Shown here one piece after another: positions 1,825 to 55,992 of a stretch of DNA of 64,000 nucleotides (within the stretch, counting starts at the first letter, position 1; each line of letters starts with the position of its first letter). The notes beneath the pieces were generated by a model. It did not search any database, was not told the DNA's origin, and saw only the letters and a list, made by a program, of their open reading frames with translations. Position numbers and translations under genes: made by a program. Source of the DNA: an uncultured Alphaproteobacteria bacterium (GTDB lineage: Bacteria > Pseudomonadota > Alphaproteobacteria > CAWJRW01); NCBI GenBank assembly GCA_963845385.1, contig CAWJRW010000006.1, positions 1,224,910-1,288,909 of the forward strand. The letters run 5' to 3'.

Positions 1825-3347
1825 GATTTTTCTCCGCAGGCGACGAGCTCACCGCGACACAGCGCGACGAGCGCGTTGCGGCTGAAGCCGCCCCCAAAGA
1901 GAAGCAGACGCGAAGCGTCCTCGCGCTGGAGCAAGGCCAAGGCGAGCCGCAATTCGCGGCGCGCACCCTTGCGATCTCCTTCCCGGCGCATCAGCCTGCC
2001 GAGATGCAGATGCGGCATGGCAAATGCGGGATCGAGATAGGCCGCGACCTGATCGTGCTCGGCGGCTCCCCGTCGATCGCCCTCGCCTTCCCTGCACAGC
2101 GCCAAGACGTAATGCGCGCCGGCATTCAGATCGTCGGCTTTGAGAAGGCCCCGGCACACATGCAGGGCTCTTGAGAACTGGGCGCTCTGCACGAGCAGGA
2201 CGGCCAAGAGCAACAGCACGTCCGGATCGGCCGCGGACTCCGGGGGAAGGTTCTCGACGAGATGGAGCGCGTCGGCAAAACGCTCCTTGCGCAGCAAATC
2301 GATGGGCGCGGCGAGGTCCCATAGGCGCGCGCCCTGCCCGCGCGCGTCGACCTCTTCGAGCGCCGTGTGCCGCGTCGCATCGGCTAGGCGCTCGATGCGC
2401 CCTGATGCCCGGCCGATCGCGTCCACCCAATCGCCGCTCAGTGAAGGGAGCGGCTGGGGAAGCGGCGACACGGCGATTGCGTGCGGCGCCAGACCGATCG
2501 CGCGCCGCGCCGGAGGCTCGATGCGCTCCTTGCGCTCGTAGTAGAACGTGCCGTGGGAATGGCGGAGGTGGAAGTCCTGCGACAAGCCTCGCAGCGTCTC
2601 CGCGTGACCGAGGAACAGATAGCCGCCCGGAGCCAGTGCGCGCGTGAGGCGTTGCACGAGGCCGATGGCGCTTTCGGGCGTGAAATACATGATCACGTTG
2701 CGGCAAAAGACGATGTCATAGGCTTCGGGCTCGAAGAGATCCGGATCGTCGGCGGCCAGGTTTCGCACGTCGAACTTGACCGATGCGCGGATGGCCGCAT
2801 CGAGCACGACGTCGTTCTTCTCGGCTTGAAACCATCGCCCTTGAATGTCGGCAGGTGTCTCGCGCAGCACCCATTTGGAATAGCGTCCCGCTGCCGCCTT
2901 CTTGATCATCTCGGGATTGATGTCCACCGCGCGAATGGAAATCTCCCAACCGGGGTCCACCGTCTCGCGCGCGGCGATCGCGAGCGAATAGGGCTCCTCG
3001 CCGGAGGCGCAGCCCGCCGACAAAATGCGCAATCGCCGCGAGCCCGCGCGCGCGGCCAGCCGCTCCGGAAGCGCCACCGCCGAGAACACGCGGAACTGCT
3101 CGATATTGCGGAAGAAGTAGGTCTCGTTGACCGTCAGGTCCTGTGCCAAAAGCGAGATCTCCGCGAGCCGGGAGTCGGTGCGCAGAGTCTCCAGATAGGA
3201 GTCGCAGGGCAAACCCGTCGCCTCGAGCCTGTTGCGCAAGAGCTCGCCGATAACGGGGAGCTTGCTCTCGTCGAAGTGAAGTCCCAGGCACCGCGTCACG
3301 AGGTCGCGAAACCGCTCCACATCGTCGAGGGCGAGCGCGGCGCTCAT
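1821..3347 (-). CDS. cheR: CheR-type chemotaxis methyltransferase with C-terminal TPR domain
   Basis: Intact ORF of 508 aa. N-terminal CheR region (NETYFFRN, ILSAGCASGEEPYSLA, VFCRNVIMYF) followed by a ~200-aa helical repeat tail typical of CheR-TPR proteins from alternative chemosensory pathways. Confidence 0.9.
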   Translation of the reverse strand: MSAALALDDVERFRDLVTRCLGLHFDESKLPVIGELLRNRLEATGLPCDSYLETLRTDSRLAEISLLAQDLTVNETYFFRNIEQFRVFSAVALPERLAARAGSRRLRILSAGCASGEEPYSLAIAARETVDPGWEISIRAVDINPEMIKKAAAGRYSKWVLRETPADIQGRWFQAEKNDVVLDAAIRASVKFDVRNLAADDPDLFEPEAYDIVFCRNVIMYFTPESAIGLVQRLTRALAPGGYLFLGHAETLRGLSQDFHLRHSHGTFYYERKERIEPPARRAIGLAPHAIAVSPLPQPLPSLSGDWVDAIGRASGRIERLADATRHTALEEVDARGQGARLWDLAAPIDLLRKERFADALHLVENLPPESAADPDVLLLLAVLLVQSAQFSRALHVCRGLLKADDLNAGAHYVLALCREGEGDRRGAAEHDQVAAYLDPAFAMPHLHLGRLMRREGDRKGARRELRLALALLQREDASRLLLFGGGFSRNALVALCRGELVACGEKS

Positions 3348-3838
3348 TGGATCGTCCCGCCCGTTCCGAGCGCCGCCCAGACCGTCTCGGGAATGAGCCG
3401 GCCGCTCTGCAGCAAGAGCAAGAGCTGAGCGTCCAACGTGCCGAGCGCCGAAATCCGCTCACCGTTGCCGTCGCGGAGGAGCGGAGGCAGGTCTTGCAGC
3501 GATTGGGCGGGAATTGTGCGCAATCCGATTACCGCATCGACCGCCAGCGCGACCGTGCGTGCTTCGATGCGAAGCGTGATGAGGCGCGCCGGGTGTGACT
3601 GCGCGGCCCCGAATAGCGCCGCAAGATCGACGACCGGCACGGGCGTCCCGCGAATGATCGACAGGCCCGAGACAAAGGGCGGCACATCCGTCACCGGTTC
3701 GAGCGGCAACGGCCGCATGGTCTCGATTACATCAGCGGCGCGCAGCGCAAAGAGCCGTGCGTCGGCGCGGCACACGAGCCAAGCTTCCCGCCCCACCCCC
3801 GCCACGGTCGGTACGGCGTCGCGTTCCTCTTTGCGCAT
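3344..3838 (-). CDS. cheW: CheW-like coupling protein
   Basis: ORF 3344..3964. I take the internal ATG at 3838 (MRKEERD...). CheW pattern LVCRADARLFALRAADVIETMRPLPLEPVTDVPPFVSGLSIIRGTPVPVVDLAALFG. 4-nt overlap with cheR. Confidence 0.8.
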   Translation of the reverse strand: MRKEERDAVPTVAGVGREAWLVCRADARLFALRAADVIETMRPLPLEPVTDVPPFVSGLSIIRGTPVPVVDLAALFGAAQSHPARLITLRIEARTVALAVDAVIGLRTIPAQSLQDLPPLLRDGNGERISALGTLDAQLLLLLQSGRLIPETVWAALGTGGTIQ

Positions 3839-4322
3839 GTCGAGGCGTCCGTGCGTCAACTTGGCGATCCTTCGCGAAGTGCGCCTCGTAGGCGGACTAT
3901 GGGGAAGCACCGGATCGCGCCGTGTTGGCTCAGAAGCCGTGCAGGCGTAAACCAGCGCACGCACTACGAGCGCGGACTATGCGACGCACAACGTTAACGA
4001 GTGTTTGATAATTGTGTACGTGTGGAGAGGTGTCTCGGCGCGTTGCAGTGGGGCATCGCCAGCGCGCATGGGGATCCTTGGCCCCTCACTCGCATCCGCA
4101 GGGAAGCGCCAAATGTTTCGGTACATCAAAGACTTAAAATCACATGACAGGGCTCGCAACACGTGGTGGGAGAGCCGTCACAAGCGCTTTTGAGCAAAGG
4201 ATCGGGCTTGTTTCGCCGGCTGGCTTCGCCGGAGAGTGCATGGATGATTAGCCTCCCGATCTTCACACTTGCGTGCCGCGACTTAGCTGGCGCCGGGACA
4301 TATCAGGAGGACGCGCGCTCAT

Positions 4323-5136
4323 ATGCCTAATCAAAGCTTCCCCTCGCTCAAGGGCCGAGCCGTGCTTGTCACCGGCGGCGCACGGGGGCTCGGGCGCGAG
4401 ATGGCGCTTGCACTGGCTGAGGCCGGAGCGCGGATTGCCATCACCGCAAAGAGCGACAGCCGCTGCGTTGCACGACACCGCGCGCGCCATTCAGCAGTAC
4501 GGCAGCGAGGGTCTCGCGATCGTGGCCGATGTCCGCTCGACCCTCGACTGCGACCGCGCGGTCCGCACGGTTTGCGAGCGCTTCGGCCGCCTCGACGTGC
4601 TCGTCAACAATGCGGGCCTCGGCATGCGGCCGGTGAGCGAAACTTATATCGACGTTCCGCCGAAATTCTGGGAGGCGGATCCCGCAGCGTGGCGCGACAT
4701 CGTCGACACCAACATCAACGGCGTCTTCAACATGGCCCGCGCGGCCGTGCCAGGCATGATCGCGCGAGCGTTCGGCAAGCTGATCAATATCACGACCAGC
4801 GCCAACACCATGACGCGCAGGGGCTTGTCGCCCTACGGCCCGTCCAAGATCGCGGTGGAGGCCATGTCGCGCATTTGGGCGAAGGATCTCGAGGGTGCCG
4901 GGATCGACGTCAACGTTTTTCTCCCCGGTGCCGCTACGGACACGGACATCCTTCCCGACAAGCGCCGCAAGGACGCCGGTCTTCTTCCGCCCGCCATCAT
5001 GCGCGCGGGAATTCTCTGGCTCTGCGCCGATCAATCGAACGGACAGACGGCGGGGCGCTATGTCGCGAAACTGTGGGACGCAGGGCTTCCGCCGGACAAA
5101 GCCGCCGCCGGCGCGCGCGAAGATTTGCCGATCTAG
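4323..5136 (+). CDS. Short-chain dehydrogenase/reductase (one frame break ~4455-4470)
   Basis: N-terminus MPNQSFPSLKGRAVLVTGGARGLGREMA (TGxxxGxG) is in the 4323 frame. The rest (NNAG, SPYGPSKIAVE = YxxxK) is in the 4273..5136 frame. AGGAGG lies upstream of the ATG. Confidence 0.85.
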
Positions 5137-5678
5137 CGCGCGGCGCCGGCGGGAACGAAGGCGGGCCAGCTCAAATCACGTTCGCTGATCACCGTGACCG
5201 GCAGCGGCCAGGCGATGGCGAAGGCCGGATCGTCGTAGCGATGGCCGGCCGCGGCATCCGGCGCATAGAAGGCGGAGATTTGGTAGAGAATCTCGGCCTC
5301 GTCAGTGAGCGACTGAAACCCGTGCAGGAAGCCTTTCGGAATGTACACCGCCCGCCGATTGCCCGCGCTGAGCTCGAAGCCCTGCCAGCGGCCATAGCTC
5401 GGCGAATGGGGCCTCAAGTCCACGATCACGTCGAAAATCGCGCCATGCACGCAACGGACGATCTTCGTCTCCTCGTGCGGGGCCTTTTGCAAATGCAGCC
5501 CGCGCAGCGTGCCGCGCCGGGTATTGTAAGAGAGGCTTTCCTGCGCGATGTCCGCATCGAGGCTCTGCGCCGCGAGCTCTCGCCCGCACCAAGCGCGCGC
5601 AAAGAAGCCGCGCTCGTCGCGATGCAACTCGAGATCGATCTGCCACGCCCCGTCGAGCTTTGTCGGCGTGAAGATCAT
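5133..5678 (-). CDS. rmlC: dTDP-4-dehydrorhamnose 3,5-epimerase
   Basis: Intact 181-aa ORF. RmlC-like sequence ...HRDERGFFARAW...RGLHLQKAPHEETKIVRCVHGAIFDVIVDLR...AVYIPKGFLHGFQSL... Confidence 0.9.
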   Translation of the reverse strand: MIFTPTKLDGAWQIDLELHRDERGFFARAWCGRELAAQSLDADIAQESLSYNTRRGTLRGLHLQKAPHEETKIVRCVHGAIFDVIVDLRPHSPSYGRWQGFELSAGNRRAVYIPKGFLHGFQSLTDEAEILYQISAFYAPDAAAGHRYDDPAFAIAWPLPVTVISERDLSWPAFVPAGAAR

Positions 5679-48931: not shown

Positions 48932-49765
48932 ATGAAGATCGGTGTCGTGGCCCCCGGCGCGCGCATCGAGCCAGCGGTGGCCGAGAGCGTGCAGGCGCTC
49001 GCGGCCAGGCTTTATCCCGACGACACGCCCGAGATCGTCTTCCATCCGCAATGCTTTCTCGCCGAGGGCCATTTCGCCGGCGACGATCAGGCGCGCGCGC
49101 TCGCCTTTCTCGAGGTGGCGAACGACGCGAGCGTCGATGCCTTGTGGTTCGCGCGCGGCGGCTACGGCTCCTGCCGCGTGGCGTTGGAACTGATCCCGCT
49201 GTTGAGCGCCGCGGCGCGCAAGAAGACCTATCTCGGCTACAGCGACGCGGGCTTTCTCTTCGCGGGCCTCTACAAACGAGGCTTCGCGGGGCTCGCCCAC
49301 GGGCCGATGCCCGCCGACATGCCGCGCGCGGGCGGCGAGGCGGCGGTCACGCGCGCGCTCGCTTTTCTCGTCGATCGCGCGCCCGAGACGCTCGAGCCCA
49401 CGCTTTCGCCCGAGACGCCGGCCGCGGCCTTCAACATCACGATCTTGAGCCACCTCCTCGGCACGCCGCTCGAGCCCGATCTCACGGGCCACGTGCTCAT
49501 GCTGGAAGAAGTGGCCGAGCACATGTACCGCATCGACCGCGCGCTCTTTCACATCACGAGCAATCCGGGCATCCGGCGCGTCGAGGGCATCCGGCTCGGG
49601 CGCTGCAGCGCCATCCCGCCCAACGAGCCCGATTTCGGCGAGAGCGAGGAGGAGGTGGCGAAGCACTGGTGCCGCGCCTCCCGCATCCCCTATCTCGGCC
49701 GCGCCGACATCGGCCACGACGGGGACAACAAGGTGGTGCCGTTTGGAAGGTGGAGTGGCGCTTGA
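48932..49765 (+). CDS. ldcA: LD-carboxypeptidase (peptidase S66)
   Basis: Intact 277-aa ORF. ...FAGDDQARALAFLE...DALWFARGGYGS...YLGYSDAGFLF...MLEEVAEHMYRIDRAL...GHDGDNKVVPFG. Confidence 0.85.
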   Translation: MKIGVVAPGARIEPAVAESVQALAARLYPDDTPEIVFHPQCFLAEGHFAGDDQARALAFLEVANDASVDALWFARGGYGSCRVALELIPLLSAAARKKTYLGYSDAGFLFAGLYKRGFAGLAHGPMPADMPRAGGEAAVTRALAFLVDRAPETLEPTLSPETPAAAFNITILSHLLGTPLEPDLTGHVLMLEEVAEHMYRIDRALFHITSNPGIRRVEGIRLGRCSAIPPNEPDFGESEEEVAKHWCRASRIPYLGRADIGHDGDNKVVPFGRWSGA

Positions 49766-49822: not shown

Positions 49823-50038
49823 TTGTCCATCTATTCCAAAGTCACGTCCAAGGCGCAGACCGTGATCCCGAAGGAAATCCGCAAACGCCTCGGGCTCAAG
49901 CCCGGCGACATGATCCGCTACAAGGTGACGGGCAAGGCGGTCGAGATCGAGCGCGCGGGCGCGCCCGCCGACGATCCCTTCGCGAGCTTCACCGAATGGG
50001 CGAGCGATGCCGACGAAAAGGCGTACGGCAAGCTCTGA
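49823..50038 (+). CDS. AbrB/MazE/SpoVT-type antitoxin
   Basis: Intact 71-aa ORF with a TTG start. SKVTSKAQTVIPKEIRKRLGLKPGDMIRYKV is a swapped-hairpin motif. Its stop overlaps the downstream toxin frame. Confidence 0.8.
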   Translation: MSIYSKVTSKAQTVIPKEIRKRLGLKPGDMIRYKVTGKAVEIERAGAPADDPFASFTEWASDADEKAYGKL

Positions 50039-50386
50039 CAGTCGCCCGCTACGCGCCCTGGGACGTCGTCATCGTCCCGTTTCCCTATGCCGACAAGCTC
50101 GCCGAGAAGCGCCGCCCCGCCCTCGTCGTCTCCAAGCCCGCGCTCGAAAAGGACCACGGCCTCATCTGGCTCGCCATGATCACGAGCGCGGAGAACCGAG
50201 GCTGGACGGGCGATGTGCCCATCGCCGATCTTGCGCGCGCAGGACTGCCCGCGCCCTCGCTCGTCCGGCCTGCCAAGATCGCCACCGTCGAGAGCGACGC
50301 GCATCCTCATGCGCGTGGGCACGCTTTCCGCCGCCGAGCGGCGCGGCGTGGCTCAAGCGATGGGGCGCTATGCAGTCGCCGATTGA
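50035..50386 (+). CDS. PemK/MazF-family toxin (start codon unclear; one frame break ~50300)
   Basis: ...YAPWDVVIVPFPYADKLAEKRRPALVVSKP...IWLAMITSAENRGWTGDVPI...GLPAPSLVRPAKIATVESD, then ILMRVGTLSAAERRGVAQAMGRYAVAD* one frame over. Confidence 0.75.
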
Positions 50387-50505
50387 TTGCCGTTCAAGTG
50401 CCATTTCGATGAAGGAGCCTGCCTCAAAACGCGCGAAAAAATTCAACTAGCCTTGAACCCCATTTGCATTCGAACCTCTTTCAAGGGGTTTCTCTTGACC
50501 CCTGG

Positions 50506-50844
50506 TCATCCCTGGTAATTAAAATGTCTTCCTTCACCAAAGTCATAAAGCTGAATGCTCCGGCCATTGATAGAGCCTTGGAAGTGGCAGCCGGAGTTGT
50601 AATCGTAGCCCGAAAATGAGTTCCCATTAATTGCGAGGCTAATGTGTTGTCCCAACCCATGATGATAAAGGGTTGCGCCGTTACCAGAAACATGGGCTCC
50701 CGCCTGATGATCATAAAAATTGTCAGCGCTACCGCTCATGTTGATATGTCGGCCTTCCGAATAGCTGTAGATCGAGTTCGGTGAATGACCTGTGGCACGA
50801 GCCAATACAGCGAACGCAATTGCACGACGGGTCTCTTCGTTCAT
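50506..50844 (-). CDS. Hypothetical 112-aa protein with five degenerate ~18-aa 'Y-x4-G-x-H-(I/V/F)' repeats; low-GC
   Basis: ORF 50506..50856. The ATG at 50844 is preceded by GGAGGTGA. The repeats are SYSEGRHINMSG / FYDHQAGAHVSGNG / LYHHGLGQHISLAING / GYDYNSGCHFQGSING / LYDFGEGRHFNYQG. The gene lies 21 nt downstream of the LexA-like gene. Confidence 0.6.
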   Translation of the reverse strand: MNEETRRAIAFAVLARATGHSPNSIYSYSEGRHINMSGSADNFYDHQAGAHVSGNGATLYHHGLGQHISLAINGNSFSGYDYNSGCHFQGSINGRSIQLYDFGEGRHFNYQG

Positions 50845-50865
50845 GAAAACACTCACCTCCAGTGA

Positions 50866-51495
50866 TCATTCAAATGGCTTCGAGACTGTGGCAATGACTA
50901 CGCCCTGCACCATGAAATCGCGCTCTAAAATGATTGGTTGATGTCTTGTGTCGTTCGAATGCGGTGTGAGGACAACTTTATCGCCTCGGCGCCCGAACTT
51001 CTTGATGGTCGCGGCATCGTCAATAAGCGCAACGACGACCTCACCGTCTTGTGCGACCGGTTGTTGACGAACAAGCACGAGATCGCCGTCTTCAATACCC
51101 CCTAGATTCATCGAGTTCCCAACCGCACGAAGAAGGAAATAGCTCGCCCCGGGTCGTGCGAGCCGCTGAGAGACGGGAACCATGGCCTCGATGTTTTCCT
51201 CGGCGAGCATTGGCAACCCACAAGGCACTGCTCCCACGAGCGGAATTTCGATCGTCCGCTCCATATGCATCTCGTCGACAATGTCGCGGATAAGTCTAAG
51301 TTTCCCCGTCGGCGTGCGCGCGAGATAGCCCTTCTTGATGAGGCGCTCGATTAGCAGCGATGCCGATCGGCGGGATTTGAAGCCCACATGATCACAGATC
51401 GCTTGAAGAGTGGGCGCCCGCCCGCGGTACAGAATGCTGTCGCGGATGAGGCCTAAGCCCCTAATTTCATTTGGTTTATTCCCTATTGTAGCCAT
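50866..51495 (-). CDS. LexA-family (winged-helix + S24 peptidase) repressor paralogue; low-GC
   Basis: Intact 209-aa ORF. LexA-type wHTH (APTLQAICDHVGFKSRRSASLLIERLIKKGYL), linker IPLVGAVPCGLPMLAEENIE, Ser motif AVGNSMNLGGIEDGDLVLV and Lys in ATIKKF. Confidence 0.85.
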   Translation of the reverse strand: MATIGNKPNEIRGLGLIRDSILYRGRAPTLQAICDHVGFKSRRSASLLIERLIKKGYLARTPTGKLRLIRDIVDEMHMERTIEIPLVGAVPCGLPMLAEENIEAMVPVSQRLARPGASYFLLRAVGNSMNLGGIEDGDLVLVRQQPVAQDGEVVVALIDDAATIKKFGRRGDKVVLTPHSNDTRHQPIILERDFMVQGVVIATVSKPFE

Positions 51496-51497
51496 GG

Positions 51498-51510
51498 TAT
51501 CCAGAGGATA
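51498..51510. promoter_or_regulatory. Perfect 13-bp palindrome abutting the LexA-like start codon (candidate operator)
   Basis: TATCC-AGA-GGATA, 3 nt upstream of the ATG (51495). It sits in the 75-nt divergent spacer toward the small plus-strand ORF. Confidence 0.3.
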
Positions 51511-51569
51511 TACTTTGTCTACTAGCGGTGCAAGTCCGCGTCAGGACCAGCGGTCAGTGGAGACGATTC

Positions 51570-51716
51570 ATGGCTCGAAAGCAGAAGCCACCCGATTGGA
51601 ACAAGGCGCAGCCACACCATGTGGTGACTGGCAAGATCACCACCAGAAAGTTCGCCGATGCTCACCCAGAGAAAGTTGAGTGGGTGAGAGGGAAAAAGCC
51701 CAAGGAAAAGGGATAG
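51570..51716 (+). CDS. Small basic hypothetical protein (48 aa), divergent from the LexA-like gene
   Basis: MARKQKPPDWNKAQPHHVVTGKITTRKFADAHPEKVEWVRGKKPKEKG. GGAGA lies 7 nt upstream of the ATG. It is part of ORF 51528..51716. Confidence 0.35.
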   Translation: MARKQKPPDWNKAQPHHVVTGKITTRKFADAHPEKVEWVRGKKPKEKG

Positions 51717-51937
51717 CGGCGACTTTCGCAGCGCTGCCAAGGGTTAAGGCGCACGATTTGCCTGTATTCCTCACGGCCTGCGACGGGCCGTCCGAGTAGC
51801 GGCCGCTCGGAAAGCAGCCTCGCCTTTTCCATGATTTCGGCCGCAGCGATGGCCGCAAGGTTGGGATGATGCTCGTGGAGAAACAGGGCGAAACGGTCGA
51901 GGTCGGCCAGCGCCTCGGCCGACCATTCGAGCTTCAT
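51662..51937 (-). pseudogene. ParE/RelE-family toxin, divergent copy with aberrant 3' end
   Basis: MKLEWSAEALADLDRFALFLHEHHPNLAAIAAAEIMEKARLLSERPLLGRPVAGREEYRQIV..., but the expected ...Y..Y....I.ILRV.H tail is missing in all frames. ATGA overlap with the upstream antitoxin. Confidence 0.6.
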
Positions 51938-52209
51938 TGGTCGCGCCATGCGCGGAAAGCGGGCGTGCCCCAGCTTTCGAGACAGCGCACGACCTTTTCG
52001 TGGGGGACGGTCTTGCCGCCCGTCTCGACGGATTTCCAACGCCGATCAAGCTCGGCGACCGTTTCCGCCTCGGAAAATCCCGGCGCAGTCTCGGGCGCCA
52101 CAAGCTCAGCGAGGAGCTCGGAAACCGTGATCCCCCGCGCCGCCGCGCGCGCTTCGAGCGCGTCGGCGGTCGCGGCATCGATCTCGATCTTGCGCAGCTT
52201 GATGGTCAT
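51934..52209 (-). CDS. Ribbon-helix-helix antitoxin (ParD-like), divergent copy
   Basis: Intact 91-aa ORF. MTIKLRKIEIDAATADALEARAAARGITVSELLAEL... The N-terminal 35 aa are nearly identical to copies 2 and 3, while the C-terminal half is different. Confidence 0.75.
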   Translation of the reverse strand: MTIKLRKIEIDAATADALEARAAARGITVSELLAELVAPETAPGFSEAETVAELDRRWKSVETGGKTVPHEKVVRCLESWGTPAFRAWRDQ

Positions 52210-52267
52210 AGAAAAAGCCTACGCCCGAGCCGGTAAATTGTCGAGAAAGCGCCCCGGCGCACGCCCC

Positions 52268-52404
52268 TCACCCAATCCCCACCGCTTTCATGCGCTCCAC
52301 CACATGCTCGACAGTGCGGCGCACTTTGGGCGCGATGAGGCGGTTCGAGGGATAGACGGCGTAGATGCCGCTTGTGGGTGTGGGGAAATCTTTGAGCACG
52401 CGCG
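52268..52404 (-). pseudogene. Fossil 3' end of a LysR-family regulator gene
   Basis: The minus frame reads ...ALTRVLKDFPTPTSGIYAVYPSNRLIAPKVRRTVEHVVERMKAVGIG*. There is no upstream part, and it abuts the parE stop. Confidence 0.65.
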
Positions 52405-52689
52405 TCAGCGCGCTTCGCGGCCGTGCCAGACGCGGAGAATGACGATCGTGTCTCTCTGCGTCAGGTGCGCATAGCGCAACACGTAAGCCGACGCGCCGAA
52501 TGGCACGACGAGCTCGCGCACGCCGGGAATGCCGGATGGGCGGCCGCGAGCGGGAAAGATTTCCAGGGATTGTATGGCAGCGTCGAGAACATCGGCGATC
52601 TGTTGCGAAGCCGATGCGCTCTTGTCTTCAAGAAACGTGTGCAGCCGCTCGAGGTCCGCAGCGGCGGCCTGAGAGACGATCAGCCTCAC
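52405..52689 (-). CDS. parE: ParE/RelE-family toxin (tandem copy 2)
   Basis: A GTG start overlapping the antitoxin TGA gives (M)RLIVSQAAAADLERLHTFLEDK...FPARGRPSGIPGVRELVVPFGASAYVLRYAHLTQRDTIVILRVWHGREAR. Confidence 0.85.
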   Translation of the reverse strand: MRLIVSQAAAADLERLHTFLEDKSASASQQIADVLDAAIQSLEIFPARGRPSGIPGVRELVVPFGASAYVLRYAHLTQRDTIVILRVWHGREAR

Positions 52690-53006
52690 AGCTTGCGCGG
52701 CTTCGGCGGCGGAAGCTCGTTCGGCGTGCCCCAGCTTTGCATCCAGGCCTTGACCTCGTCCCAGGGCACGCCGAGCCCGTTGCGCTCGAACTCGGCAAGC
52801 CGTCGCGCATCCTCGGCGAGGATTTCGGGCGCCCACGGGCCGCGGCCCGCGGCACGCATGGTTTCGAGGTCGGGCGGCAGGGATTCTTCGGTTTGGGCAA
52901 TCTCGGCAAGAAGCTCGGCGACTGAAATTCCACGCGCCGCGGCGCGTGCTTCGAGCGCATCGGCCGTCGCCGCGTCGATCTCGATCTTGCGCAGCTTGAT
53001 GGTCAT
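52686..53006 (-). CDS. parD: Ribbon-helix-helix antitoxin (ParD-like; tandem copy 2)
   Basis: Intact 106-aa ORF, identical in protein sequence to 53523..53843. Confidence 0.8.
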   Translation of the reverse strand: MTIKLRKIEIDAATADALEARAAARGISVAELLAEIAQTEESLPPDLETMRAAGRGPWAPEILAEDARRLAEFERNGLGVPWDEVKAWMQSWGTPNELPPPKPRKL

Positions 53007-53104
53007 GCAAACAGCCTACGCCAGCGCGAGTTAATTGTCGAGAAAATGCCCGGGCTTGCGCAATGCCCTCGCCTCGGTCCGGCAAAGCTTTCGCGCCCCT
53101 CCCC

Positions 53105-53241
53105 TCACCCAATGCCCACCGCCTTCATGCGCTCCACCACGTGCTCGACAGTGCGGCGCACTTTGGGCGCGATGAGGCGGTTCGAGGGACAGACGGCGAA
53201 GGCGCCCCTTGTGGGTGTGGGGAAATCTTCGCGCATGCGCC
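53105..53241 (-). pseudogene. Fossil 3' end of a LysR-family regulator gene (second copy)
   Basis: ...ALRRMREDFPTPTRGAFAVCPSNRLIAPKVRRTVEHVVERMKAVGIG*. Diverged from the copy at 52268-52404. Confidence 0.6.
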
Positions 53242-53526
53242 TCAGCGCGCTTCGCGGCCGTGCCAGACGCGGAGAATGACGATCGTGTCTCTCTGCGTCA
53301 GGTGCGCATAGCGCAACACGTAAGCCGACGTGCCGAATGGCACGACGAGCTCGCGCACGCCGGGAATGCCGGATGGGCGGCCGGGATCGGGAAAGATTTC
53401 CAGGGATTGTATGGCAGCGTCGAGAACATCGGCGATCTGTTGCGAAGCCGATGCGCTCTTGTCTTCAAGAAACGTGTGCAGCCGCTCGAGGTCCGCAGCG
53501 GCGGCCTGAGAGACGATCAGCCTCAC
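53242..53526 (-). CDS. parE: ParE/RelE-family toxin (tandem copy 3)
   Basis: Same as copy 2 except for AR->DP and A->T substitutions. It lies exactly 837 bp from copy 2. Confidence 0.85.
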   Translation of the reverse strand: MRLIVSQAAAADLERLHTFLEDKSASASQQIADVLDAAIQSLEIFPDPGRPSGIPGVRELVVPFGTSAYVLRYAHLTQRDTIVILRVWHGREAR

Positions 53527-53843
53527 AGCTTGCGCGGCTTCGGCGGCGGAAGCTCGTTCGGCGTGCCCCAGCTTTGCATCCAGGCCTTGACCTCGTCCCA
53601 GGGCACGCCGAGCCCGTTGCGCTCGAACTCGGCAAGCCGTCGCGCATCCTCGGCGAGGATTTCGGGCGCCCACGGGCCGCGGCCCGCGGCACGCATGGTT
53701 TCGAGGTCGGGCGGCAGGGATTCTTCGGTTTGGGCAATCTCGGCAAGAAGCTCGGCGACTGAAATTCCACGCGCCGCGGCGCGTGCTTCGAGCGCATCGG
53801 CCGTCGCCGCGTCGATCTCGATCTTGCGCAGCTTGATGGTCAT
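53523..53843 (-). CDS. parD: Ribbon-helix-helix antitoxin (ParD-like; tandem copy 3)
   Basis: Intact 106-aa ORF. Its start lies 26 nt downstream of the rpoD stop. Confidence 0.8.
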   Translation of the reverse strand: MTIKLRKIEIDAATADALEARAAARGISVAELLAEIAQTEESLPPDLETMRAAGRGPWAPEILAEDARRLAEFERNGLGVPWDEVKAWMQSWGTPNELPPPKPRKL

Positions 53844-53868
53844 GCAAAAAGCCTACGCCAGCGCGTCC

Positions 53869-55992
53869 TCAATTGTCCAGGAAGCTTCGCAGCTTCCGCG
53901 ACCGGCTCGGGTGCTTGAGCTTGCGCAGCGCCTTCGCCTCGATCTGGCGGATGCGTTCGCGCGTCACCGAGAACTGCTGACCCACTTCTTCGAGCGTGTG
54001 GTCGGTGTTCATGCCGATGCCGAAGCGCATGCGCAGCACGCGCTCTTCGCGCGGCGTGAGCGAGGCGAGCACGCGCGTGGTCGTCTCGCGCAAGTTCGAC
54101 TGGATCGCGGCGTCGATGGGCAGGATCGCGTTCTTGTCCTCGATGAAGTCGCCGAGATGGCTGTCCTCCTCGTCGCCGATGGGCGTTTCGAGCGAGATCG
54201 GCTCCTTCGCGATCTTCAAGACTTTGCGCACTTTCTCGAGCGGCATGGCGAGCTTTTCGGCGAGCTCCTCGGGCGTGGGCTCGCGGCCGATCTCGTGCAG
54301 CATCTGGCGCGACGTGCGCACGAGCTTGTTGATAGTCTCGATCATGTGCACGGGAATGCGGATGGTGCGCGCCTGATCGGCGATCGAGCGCGTGATGGCC
54401 TGCCGGATCCACCACGTGGCGTAGGTCGAGAACTTGTAGCCGCGGCGGTACTCGAACTTGTCCACCGCCTTCATGAGGCCGATATTGCCTTCCTGGATGA
54501 GATCCAAGAACTGCAGCCCCCGGTTCGTGTATTTCTTGGCGATGGAAATGACGAGGCGCAGATTGGCCTCCACCATTTCTTTCTTGGCCTGGCGGGCTTC
54601 CTTCTCGCCCTTCTGCACCGTCTGCACGATGCGGCGGTACTCGGCGATCTCGAGCCCGGTCTCGCGCGACAGCTTGTGAATCTCGTTGCGGATTTCCTTG
54701 ACGGCGGCGCGCTCGACCTGCACGTACTCCTTCCAGCCCTTGCCCGCGAGGCGGCCAACGCGGCGCGTCCAATTCGGGTCGAGCTCGTTGCCGAGATACT
54801 GCTTCAGAAAATCGTCGCGGCTCACGCGGTGACTTTCGGCGAGCCGCAGAAGCTTGCCTTCGAGCGAGACGAGCCTGCGGTTGATGCCGTAGATCTGATC
54901 GACCAGCGCCTCGATGCGGTTGTTGTTGAGGCGCAGGCTCTTCATGAGATCGACGAGGCCGCCGCCGAGCTTGTTCAGGCGCCGGCCCTGGCTCGTGGAA
55001 ATGTCTTCGTTCTTGAGCTTCGCGCCGACATTGGCTTCCTGCAGCCGGCGCAGCTTTTTGTACTCGCCCGCGACCTTGTCGAAGATCTCGAGCACTTGCG
55101 GCTTCAGCGCGATTTCCATGGCCGCGAGCGACATCGCGTTCTCGTCGTCGTCGCCGAAATCCTCTTCGCCCTCGGGCAGCTCAGGCTCGTCGCTGCCGTC
55201 CTTCTGGCCTGCCACGGCGGCGGGCGCGGGCGCGGGCGCGGGATCGGGCGCCGCACCCATGATTGCGGGAGCGGCTGCCGCCGGCACCACCACCACCGCC
55301 GCCGCCGCCGCCGGCACCGGCACCGGCACCGGCGCCGCACCGGGCTGGGGCACGCCGTCCGGGCCCTGGCCATAGGTGGCGTCGAGATCGATGACGTCAC
55401 GGAGCAGAATGCGCCCCTCGTTCAGCTCGTCGCGCCAGATGGTGATGGCGCGGAAGGTGAGCGGGCTCTCGCACAAGCCGCCGATCATGGTCTCGCGGCC
55501 GGCCTCGATGCGCTTGGCGATGGCGATCTCGCCCTCGCGGGAGAGGAGCTCCACCGAGCCCATCTCGCGCAGATACATGCGCACCGGGTCGTCCGTGCGG
55601 TCGAGCACCTCGGCCTCGGGCTTTGCCGTGAGCGCACCGTCCTCGCGCACGGCCGGCGGCTCGGGCTCGGCCTCGGCCTCTTCCTGCTCCTCGGTCTCGA
55701 CCACGTTGATGCCCATCTCCGAGAGCATGGACATGGTGTCCTCGATCTGCTCGGAGGACACCTGCTCGGAGGGCATCACCTTGTTCAGCTCGTCATAAGT
55801 GACATAGCCGCGCGTCTTGGCCTTGGCGATCATCTTGCGCACGGCCTGATCGTTGAGATCGAGGAGCGGCTGGTCTTGCGTCTCGGCGCCGGGCTCCGCC
55901 GCGCCACCTGGGGTGGGGGTCGCGGGCTTGGCGCCGGCACGCGGCTCGGGCGCGCGGCGCTTCGTCTTCGTCTGTTCCTGCTCACGCGCCAT
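53869..55992 (-). CDS. rpoD: RNA polymerase primary sigma factor (sigma-70)
   Basis: Intact 707-aa ORF. Regions 1.1-4.2 are recognisable ([57 protein letters not shown]...[42 protein letters not shown]). Confidence 0.97.

Follow-up and report, generated by a model that had tools for sequence, protein, structure and literature searches.

Several insulated ParDE paralogues can coexist in one alphaproteobacterial genome, and the Vibrio cholerae superintegron carries duplicated parDE1/parDE3 cassettes with identical antitoxins and near-identical toxins. The nearest solved complex to the proteins considered here is the toxin-antitoxin (TA) pair ParESO-CopASO (PDB 7ETR) from the Shewanella oneidensis prophage CP4So, in which H91 of the toxin is required for toxicity (PMC8706911). 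The locus described here is in a 64,000-nt stretch of the genome of an uncultured Alphaproteobacteria bacterium (assembly GCA_963845385.1, contig CAWJRW010000006.1, positions 1,224,910 to 1,288,909 of the forward strand), called the window below; coordinates are those of the window unless another contig is named. It consists of three type II TA units, head to tail on the minus strand, directly 3' of rpoD. The history we prefer, with a probability of about 0.7, is that this is a real three-unit array formed by an old, microhomology-joined tandem duplication of a segment containing the tail of a LysR-type gene, a decayed copy of the rpoD end and a TA pair, followed by recent gene conversion of the TA core.

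Array layout and identity of units 2 and 3

The units are numbered from the distal end, unit 3 adjoining rpoD (53869-55992, minus strand), an open reading frame (ORF) for a 707-aa housekeeping sigma-70 factor. Reading away from rpoD, unit 3 consists of a 25-nt leader (53844-53868), the 106-aa antitoxin A3 (53523-53843), with a ribbon-helix-helix (RHH)-like N-terminal domain and a RelB3_C-type toxin-binding C-terminus, and the 94-aa toxin T3 of the ParE/RelE superfamily (53242-53526; GTG start). Unit 2 has the same parts: a leader (53007-53028), antitoxin A2 (106 aa; 52686-53006), and toxin T2 (94 aa; 52405-52689). Unit 1 retains a 91-aa antitoxin, A1 (51934-52209), and a toxin remnant, T1 (51752-51937). 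The antitoxin gene comes first in all three, and its stop overlaps the start of the toxin gene by 4 nt (GTGA in units 2 and 3, ATGA in unit 1), as expected for translationally coupled genes.

Units 2 and 3 align in an 837-bp register without a single indel over 765 nt (52264-53028 vs. 53101-53865). The A2 and A3 proteins are identical, as is their DNA; T2 and T3 differ at three residues (A47D, R48P, and A66T), traceable to nucleotide differences at 52494, 52547, and 52550. The initial annotation had reported the coordinates of the units, the offset, and the identical and near-identical products, and all of this is correct on alignment. It had also contrasted near-identical coding parts with diverged spacers, which pairwise alignment bears out: there are 12 differences in the 141 nt behind the toxin stop, three in the 285 nt of the toxin gene, none in the 321 nt of the antitoxin gene, and one, at 53012, in the 22 nt of leader that form the right-hand end of the near-identical tract. 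Cassette plus leader thus has four differences in 624 nt, vs. 12 in the 141 nt behind the toxin (Fisher p = 9.5e-7). Identity extends without interruption for up to 461 nt, a length reached in only one of 100,000 permutations (p about 1e-5). The cassette cores are 99.4% identical, with no synonymous difference in 606 coding nt; all three differences between T2 and T3 are non-synonymous.

Within this tract, then, identity is significantly higher than in flanks belonging to the same duplication, which is the pattern left by gene conversion. We favor conversion, or an equivalent non-reciprocal replacement, of the TA core as the probable explanation; neither recent duplication of the whole unit nor purifying selection would account for it. 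Of the two possibilities raised in the initial annotation, the data favor conversion limited to the cassette over a recent duplication, for which the fossil flanks are too diverged.

Gene fossils in the spacers and the composition of unit 1

The spacers, anonymous in the initial annotation, can be identified as fossils of two gene ends. The 141 nt behind T3 (fossil A, 53101-53241) and behind T2 (fossil B, 52264-52404) each encode the last 43 residues of a LysR-type regulator, plus stop, and are joined directly to the toxin stop codon. The intact counterpart is on a 4.3-kb metagenome contig from the Joint Genome Institute (JGI), L008, to whose LysR protein the two tails are 79-88% identical (fossil A matches residues 252-298 at 79% in a tblastn search). 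At the nucleotide level the tails are 91.2% identical to each other (8.8% differ); B is 90.5% identical to the L008 tail, equal to the genome background of 87-90%, and A is 86.1% identical to it. An exact search of metagenome contigs with a 27-nt LysR-tail pattern returned no matches.

Decayed copies of the rpoD 3' end precede the leaders of units 2 and 1. The first of these, f2, together with the junction to the LysR tail, occupies 53029-53100. Its positions 53054-53096 align to rpoD 53919-53962, and 53030-53045 (TTTTCTCGACAATTAA) align to the end of rpoD; when f2 is aligned locally to the final 120 nt of rpoD the score is 41, a value that none of 2000 dinucleotide shuffles reached (15.5 +/- 2.7). 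MAFFT alignment shows f2 to be collinear with the real rpoD end of unit 3 except for a 27-nt and a 1-nt deletion, and about 78-80% like it. The last rpoD codons (TTC CTG GAC AAT TGA) overlap the -35-like hexamer of unit 3, TGGACA, and the "FLDN*" similarity might have been merely that promoter box; for f2 this is ruled out by the shuffle test. The shorter copy, f1, shares 52210-52263 with the unit 1 leader (CTTTCTCGACAATTTAC...GGCGTAGGCT). The ortholog of this stretch in L008 is the spacer between LysR and antitoxin, and because both of these sequences are homologous to f2, with further deletions, they are taken as rpoD fossils as well.

L008 is an ortholog of this region. Its rpoD is 89% identical at the nucleotide and 94% at the amino acid level, its far end matches window 49402-49746 at 87%, and its positions 2731-3040 match 52413-52110 at 89%. 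The order of genes is rpoD, a cupin gene on the opposite strand, a full-length LysR gene, a short rpoD-tail fossil with the same leader, an antitoxin gene (product 76% identical to A3), a ParE toxin gene (71%), and, immediately behind the toxin stop codon, an additional, partial LysR tail. This layout implies that LysR was immediately upstream of the TA pair in the state from which the LysR tails of the window derive. The cupin/LysR pair is found in unrelated contexts in other organisms and has no other copy in this genome, and was therefore presumably inserted between rpoD and the TA pair in the common lineage and later lost here. From the divergence of the LysR and rpoD fossils it follows that the duplication is old, of about the age of the split from L008 (87-90% nucleotide identity).

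At the joint between toxin and LysR tail, a 7-nt microhomology, GCGCGCT, is common to the end of the toxin gene (GAAGCGCGCTGA) and the interior of LysR (GGCGCGCTCGTGCGCGTGCTC...). This fits an illegitimate, microhomology-mediated tandem duplication of the segment LysR tail-fossil-leader-antitoxin-toxin. Both joints in the window are at the same position, so the joint would have formed once and then been copied.

Unit 1 has a different composition. A1 shares 33 of its first 36 residues with A2/A3; the DNA is 84% identical over the first 108 nt and 82% over 158 nt including the leader. The initial annotation had described N-terminus and leader as shared almost exactly, which is true of the protein but overstated for the DNA. 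Over the leader plus the first 108 nt, A1 is 90.7% identical to the L008 antitoxin gene (the first 33 residues are identical), 84.3% to A2/A3, and 69.4% to a "type-1" antitoxin gene on contig L022. For the rest of A1 the corresponding values are 49.8, 51.2, and 60.7%, where about 50%, as found against other type-3 antitoxins, is alignment noise. Judged by these domain-wise identities, A1 is a predicted chimera, with codons 1-36 from the local type-3 lineage and the remainder a type-1 toxin-binding domain. Type-1 and type-3 units are found side by side at rpoD on contigs L021, L022/L073/L074, L079, and L080, so that the chimera is most simply explained by recombination between neighboring units within the conserved RHH-coding region. 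The earlier suggestion of a mosaic antitoxin generated by recombination in the conserved 5' region is thus supported by the comparison with other genomes.

T1 was also correctly described there as damaged at its 3' end. Only its residues 1-62 align with the full-length type-1 toxin of L022, at 73% identity, and homology ends at nt 51752; the ORF (51662-51937) stays in frame through unrelated sequence to 51662. About 32 C-terminal residues are missing, including the conserved His region, and this third of the gene is not found elsewhere in the window. The truncation point is the right edge of a lower-GC islet (50440-51751; GC 0.57-0.58 vs. about 0.65) with matches to Peptidase_S24 and LexA_DNA_bind.

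The islet carries a LexA-like S24 repressor gene (50866-51495, minus strand) and a small divergent ORF (51528-51716, plus strand); in L008 its place is taken by about 375 nt of unrelated sequence. Between the array and islet and the ldcA side there is a further TA pair on the plus strand (49823-50412), absent from L008, with a MazE/AbrB-type antitoxin (49823-50038; PF04014, E = 1.7e-9) and a PemK/MazF-type toxin (about 50035-50412; PF02452, E = 1.7e-10).

Proposed history and alternatives

The sequence anatomy, the statistics, and the comparative loci can be connected by the following order of events, which is itself inferred. The ancestral state would have been rpoD followed by a TA pair. A cupin-LysR pair was then perhaps inserted between them, leaving an old rpoD-tail fossil before the TA pair, a state that would survive in L008. 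The segment LysR tail-rpoD fossil-promoter-antitoxin-toxin could next have been duplicated in tandem at the GCGCGCT microhomology, and the unit copied again. The body of the cupin-LysR pair would have been lost here, most simply by recombination of the real rpoD tail with a fossil tail. The distal unit may then have become chimeric, with the local leader and RHH domain combined with the toxin-binding domain and toxin of the second type, and the inserted islet would have cut off the last third of the toxin. Recent gene conversion would finally have homogenized the core of units 2 and 3 (99.4%, with the 461-nt identical tract), leaving the fossil flanks 9-22% diverged.

Some observations weigh against this history. 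The toxin/LysR-tail joint of L008 is at a different position, with 24 codons of LysR rather than 43, which requires an extra deletion or an independent event, and the order of events depends on this one close relative, a contig of 4.3 kb. The high-identity tract stops exactly at the toxin stop codon, which could hint at a non-random conversion end point. A strict promoter scan did not call the unit leaders. Copy number and the exact count of differences between units 2 and 3 come from one metagenome-assembled genome (MAG), 73% complete and in 10 contigs; polishing of copies so alike could have erased a few real differences, and further such copies may have collapsed in the assembly. Tandem Repeats Finder reported no repeat, because 500 is its longest period, and no further TA, LysR-tail, LysR, or cupin copies were found elsewhere in the genome.

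The exact 837-bp register, without indels over 765 bp, might at first suggest a very recent duplication of the whole unit, with no conversion and with spacer differences arising as later mutations. This is highly improbable: 16 randomly spread differences would not place 12 in 141 nt and leave a 461-nt run (p about 1e-6 to 1e-5), nor can purifying selection be called on to erase synonymous differences, of which there are none in the coding sequence. Upstream of the leaders, moreover, the two units differ: unit 3 has the functional end of rpoD, unit 2 a decayed fossil with indels. An assembly artefact, with the second or third copy built from mis-assembled strain variants or by repeat expansion, or with further copies collapsed, has to be considered, the genome being a metagenome bin and no independent assembly carrying the same proteins (the A3 and T2/T3 protein clusters are represented on one contig only). 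We think it very unlikely. The junctions are unique and biologically sensible, tail A|f2 and tail B|f1 differing by large indels; nothing else in the genome is an allele of f2; the contig has a length of 2.19 Mb; and in L008, assembled independently from a different sample, a LysR tail likewise follows the toxin.

The units could conceivably also be mobile cassettes inserted independently, by serial accretion. A circle of LysR or rpoD tail, promoter, antitoxin, and toxin would loop out between direct repeats and re-integrate beside a resident copy or at the rpoD 3' end, through homologous recombination or a site-specific recombinase acting in trans. The TA pair of L008 is in fact bracketed by direct repeats of the LysR tail; on contig L011 one rpoD-tail fossil (3735-3806) comes after a TA pair and another (4890-4973) after a second segment; and on contig L043 an rpoD-tail fossil has traveled with its antitoxin to a site without rpoD. 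If a circle derived from unit 2 had re-integrated very recently, the near-identical cores would also be explained, but it would have brought an identical LysR tail, and 12 of the 141 positions differ between tails A and B. Neither an integrase gene nor an attC-like inverted repeat was found in or beside the array, and a search of 72,556 plasmids did not find the family. The products are formally equal to those of unequal crossing-over, so that this proposal differs from tandem duplication mainly in mechanism; taken as a whole we consider it doubtful. Integron cassettes in particular were rejected: the inverted repeats that were found are palindromes within the antitoxin gene rather than attC sites flanking the units. 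The ORF list for 50.5-55 kb contains no integrase-like ORF, although intI was not searched for genome-wide.

A related idea, which we put forward only tentatively, is that the rpoD 3' end acts as a recombinase-free landing pad: segments carrying an rpoD tail would loop out and re-insert by homologous recombination, in the same or another cell. Elements would accumulate behind rpoD, each with a fossil tail in front of it, and addictive TA pairs would retain them there. If true, this would explain the rpoD adjacency in many lineages, the two successive fossils of L011, and the fossil of L043 away from any rpoD.

Protein families, distribution, and comparison with known systems

Both full-length toxins match PF05016 (ParE_toxin), T2 with 57.5 bits and T3 with 56.4 bits (E = 4.5e-15; cut-off 23; profile positions 2-88 of 89); T1 reaches 27.4 bits over positions 1-58 only, consistent with its truncation. 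T3 also matches 7ETR_C (E = 2.4e-10), and residues 61-98 of A3 match 7ETR_A (E = 8.5e-4). His89 of T2 and T3, which aligns with ParESO H91, is nearly invariant among 39 aligned sequences and is missing from T1. T2 looks fully intact and consensus-like, with the FPxRGRP motif and His89 kept. Within this motif T3 has Pro48 (codons 47-48, window 53384-53387) where nearly all close homologs have Arg, and it is possibly attenuated through R48P. NCBIfam gave only a sub-threshold RelE_StbE match, and that for the type-1 relative alone.

The initial label "ParD-like" was loose for the antitoxins. No ParD family is among their Pfam matches at E <= 0.1, and NCBIfam has no match for four proteins of the window. 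A local Pfam search gave RHH_1, RHH_4, and FitA-like matches at 15-18 bits, under their cut-offs, with weak Unstab_antitox and RHH matches for A1. A RelB3_C domain (PF27535) is precomputed in the database for the window antitoxin and for all 120 homologs listed, and is found in the called genes as well. An AlphaFold2 model of A3 (mean predicted local distance difference test, pLDDT, 82.9) has helices at residues 12-24 and 29-42 (pLDDT about 95), followed by three more; in Foldseek it is matched best by RHH antitoxins and repressors, among them the N-terminal domain of CopASO, all with E > 1 and none significant. By these matches the units are predicted to be type II TA operons of the ParE/RelE type, whose antitoxin is of the RHH type and not strictly a ParD. 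The toxin sequences cannot separate ParE-type (gyrase) from RelE-type activity.

Promoter use, toxicity, and cross-talk can be predicted to some extent. Each unit has a conserved -35/-10-like pair, TCGACA or TGGACA followed after 17-18 nt by TAGGCT; in unit 3 the putative -10 is at 53850-53855 and the -35 at 53874-53879, inside the rpoD end. The arrangement TCGACA-N17-TAnnnT is also found upstream of homologous antitoxins away from rpoD (L007, L009, and L012), and -10 boxes are clearer in corA contexts. A terminator scan found no terminator-like site between rpoD and the array or between the units, which makes transcription of the array by read-through from rpoD plausible. No Rfam family was found in 50.0-56.5 kb. 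By analogy with ParESO-CopASO (PMC8706911), an antitoxin dimer would repress its own promoter through the RHH domain, and the C-terminal extension would fold onto the toxin. Units 2 and 3 have identical antitoxins and are therefore presumably redundant and cross-neutralizing, each protecting against the toxin of the other. A1 is probably an orphan antitoxin, whose DNA-binding domain would still recognize the shared operators but whose C-terminus should fail to neutralize T2 or T3.

The family was followed in 74 antitoxin loci: 17 on named MAG contigs, almost all Hyphomicrobiales-like, 54 on metagenome contigs, and three on other contigs, one of which is the same contig as a MAG locus. A real rpoD is found no more than 3 kb upstream in 18 of them, and within 30 nt in seven; many other contigs are too short to tell. 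The rpoD proteins of 18 related loci are 67-98% identical to the one here, and other copies of the family come after corA. In Hyphomicrobiales-like alphaproteobacteria the family thus recurs at the position directly 3' of rpoD. The toxin is often truncated or missing in this set where the antitoxin persists. Truncated, frameshifted, or absent toxins with intact antitoxins are seen in L010, L034, L037, L043, L049, L030, and others, and related loci of this kind fit a decay of the module that begins with the toxin. An antitoxin homolog was not found in 40 relatives of the same class, nor in 400 genomes drawn evenly from it, and a collection of 72,556 plasmids gave no match.

The 40 nearest relative genomes share only the class with this bacterium, none the order; metagenome contigs L008 and L019 are closer, at 87-89% nucleotide identity. 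Some individual loci are of interest in their own right. On L011, two successive inserted segments follow rpoD (2980-4980), a TA pair and then two unknown genes on the opposite strand, each segment closed by one of the decayed rpoD tails noted above; beyond the second fossil there is a paralog of one of these two genes (5005-5400). On L043 (393-950) the rpoD-tail fossil is directly upstream of the homologous antitoxin and far from any rpoD; no rpoD was found upstream and no toxin downstream, and a phage Gp37-like gene is on the other strand. L021, labeled as an Acidobacteriota bin, has an rpoD end with 83-100% protein identity to the rpoD here and frameshifts in several genes, and is likely a mis-binned, error-rich long-read contig.

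In all, the array is a clear and well-documented case of ordinary TA family dynamics and not a new kind of system. No relevant literature was found on rpoD-linked TA operons or on concerted evolution of tandem TA units; the recurrent link of this family to the rpoD 3' end in Hyphomicrobiales-like bacteria, so far unremarked, is mildly novel, but a side issue. The array also offers material for testing cross-regulation and cross-neutralization among paralogous TA units, and in unit 1 an apparent example of how antitoxins can be rebuilt by swapping the toxin-binding half behind a common DNA-binding half.

With ParESO-CopASO (7ETR; PMC8706911) the units share the ParE/RelE fold, toxin length, and motif layout, the antitoxin gene in first position with a stop/start overlap, and an antitoxin with a C-terminal toxin-binding extension behind an N-terminal RHH DNA-binding domain, the latter a prediction for the units here. 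The similarity is distant, however, and that system is prophage-borne, whereas the units here are chromosomal, beside rpoD, in three tandem copies, and have a PF27535 C-terminus. Canonical ParD-ParE systems (RK2 ParDE, Caulobacter ParDE1, and Mesorhizobium ParD3-ParE3) are likewise type II, with a PF05016 toxin, and have an autoregulating RHH antitoxin, as would be predicted for these units too, but the antitoxin here belongs to none of the ParD models in Pfam or NCBIfam. The V. cholerae parDE1/parDE3 copies are scattered integron cassettes with attC sites; those here are strictly tandem, without a detected attC site or integrase, and the fossils of neighboring genes record a segmental duplication. 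A parallel to the proposed history is the concerted evolution of tandem paralogs such as tuf genes and rRNA operons, in which a near-identical tract is likewise found inside older, more diverged homologous flanks. The difference is that the converted unit here is a selfish or addictive module and its flanks are dead gene fragments: the trapped gene ends serve as a built-in neutral clock, by which the TA cassette appears to have been kept near-identical by gene conversion long after it was duplicated.

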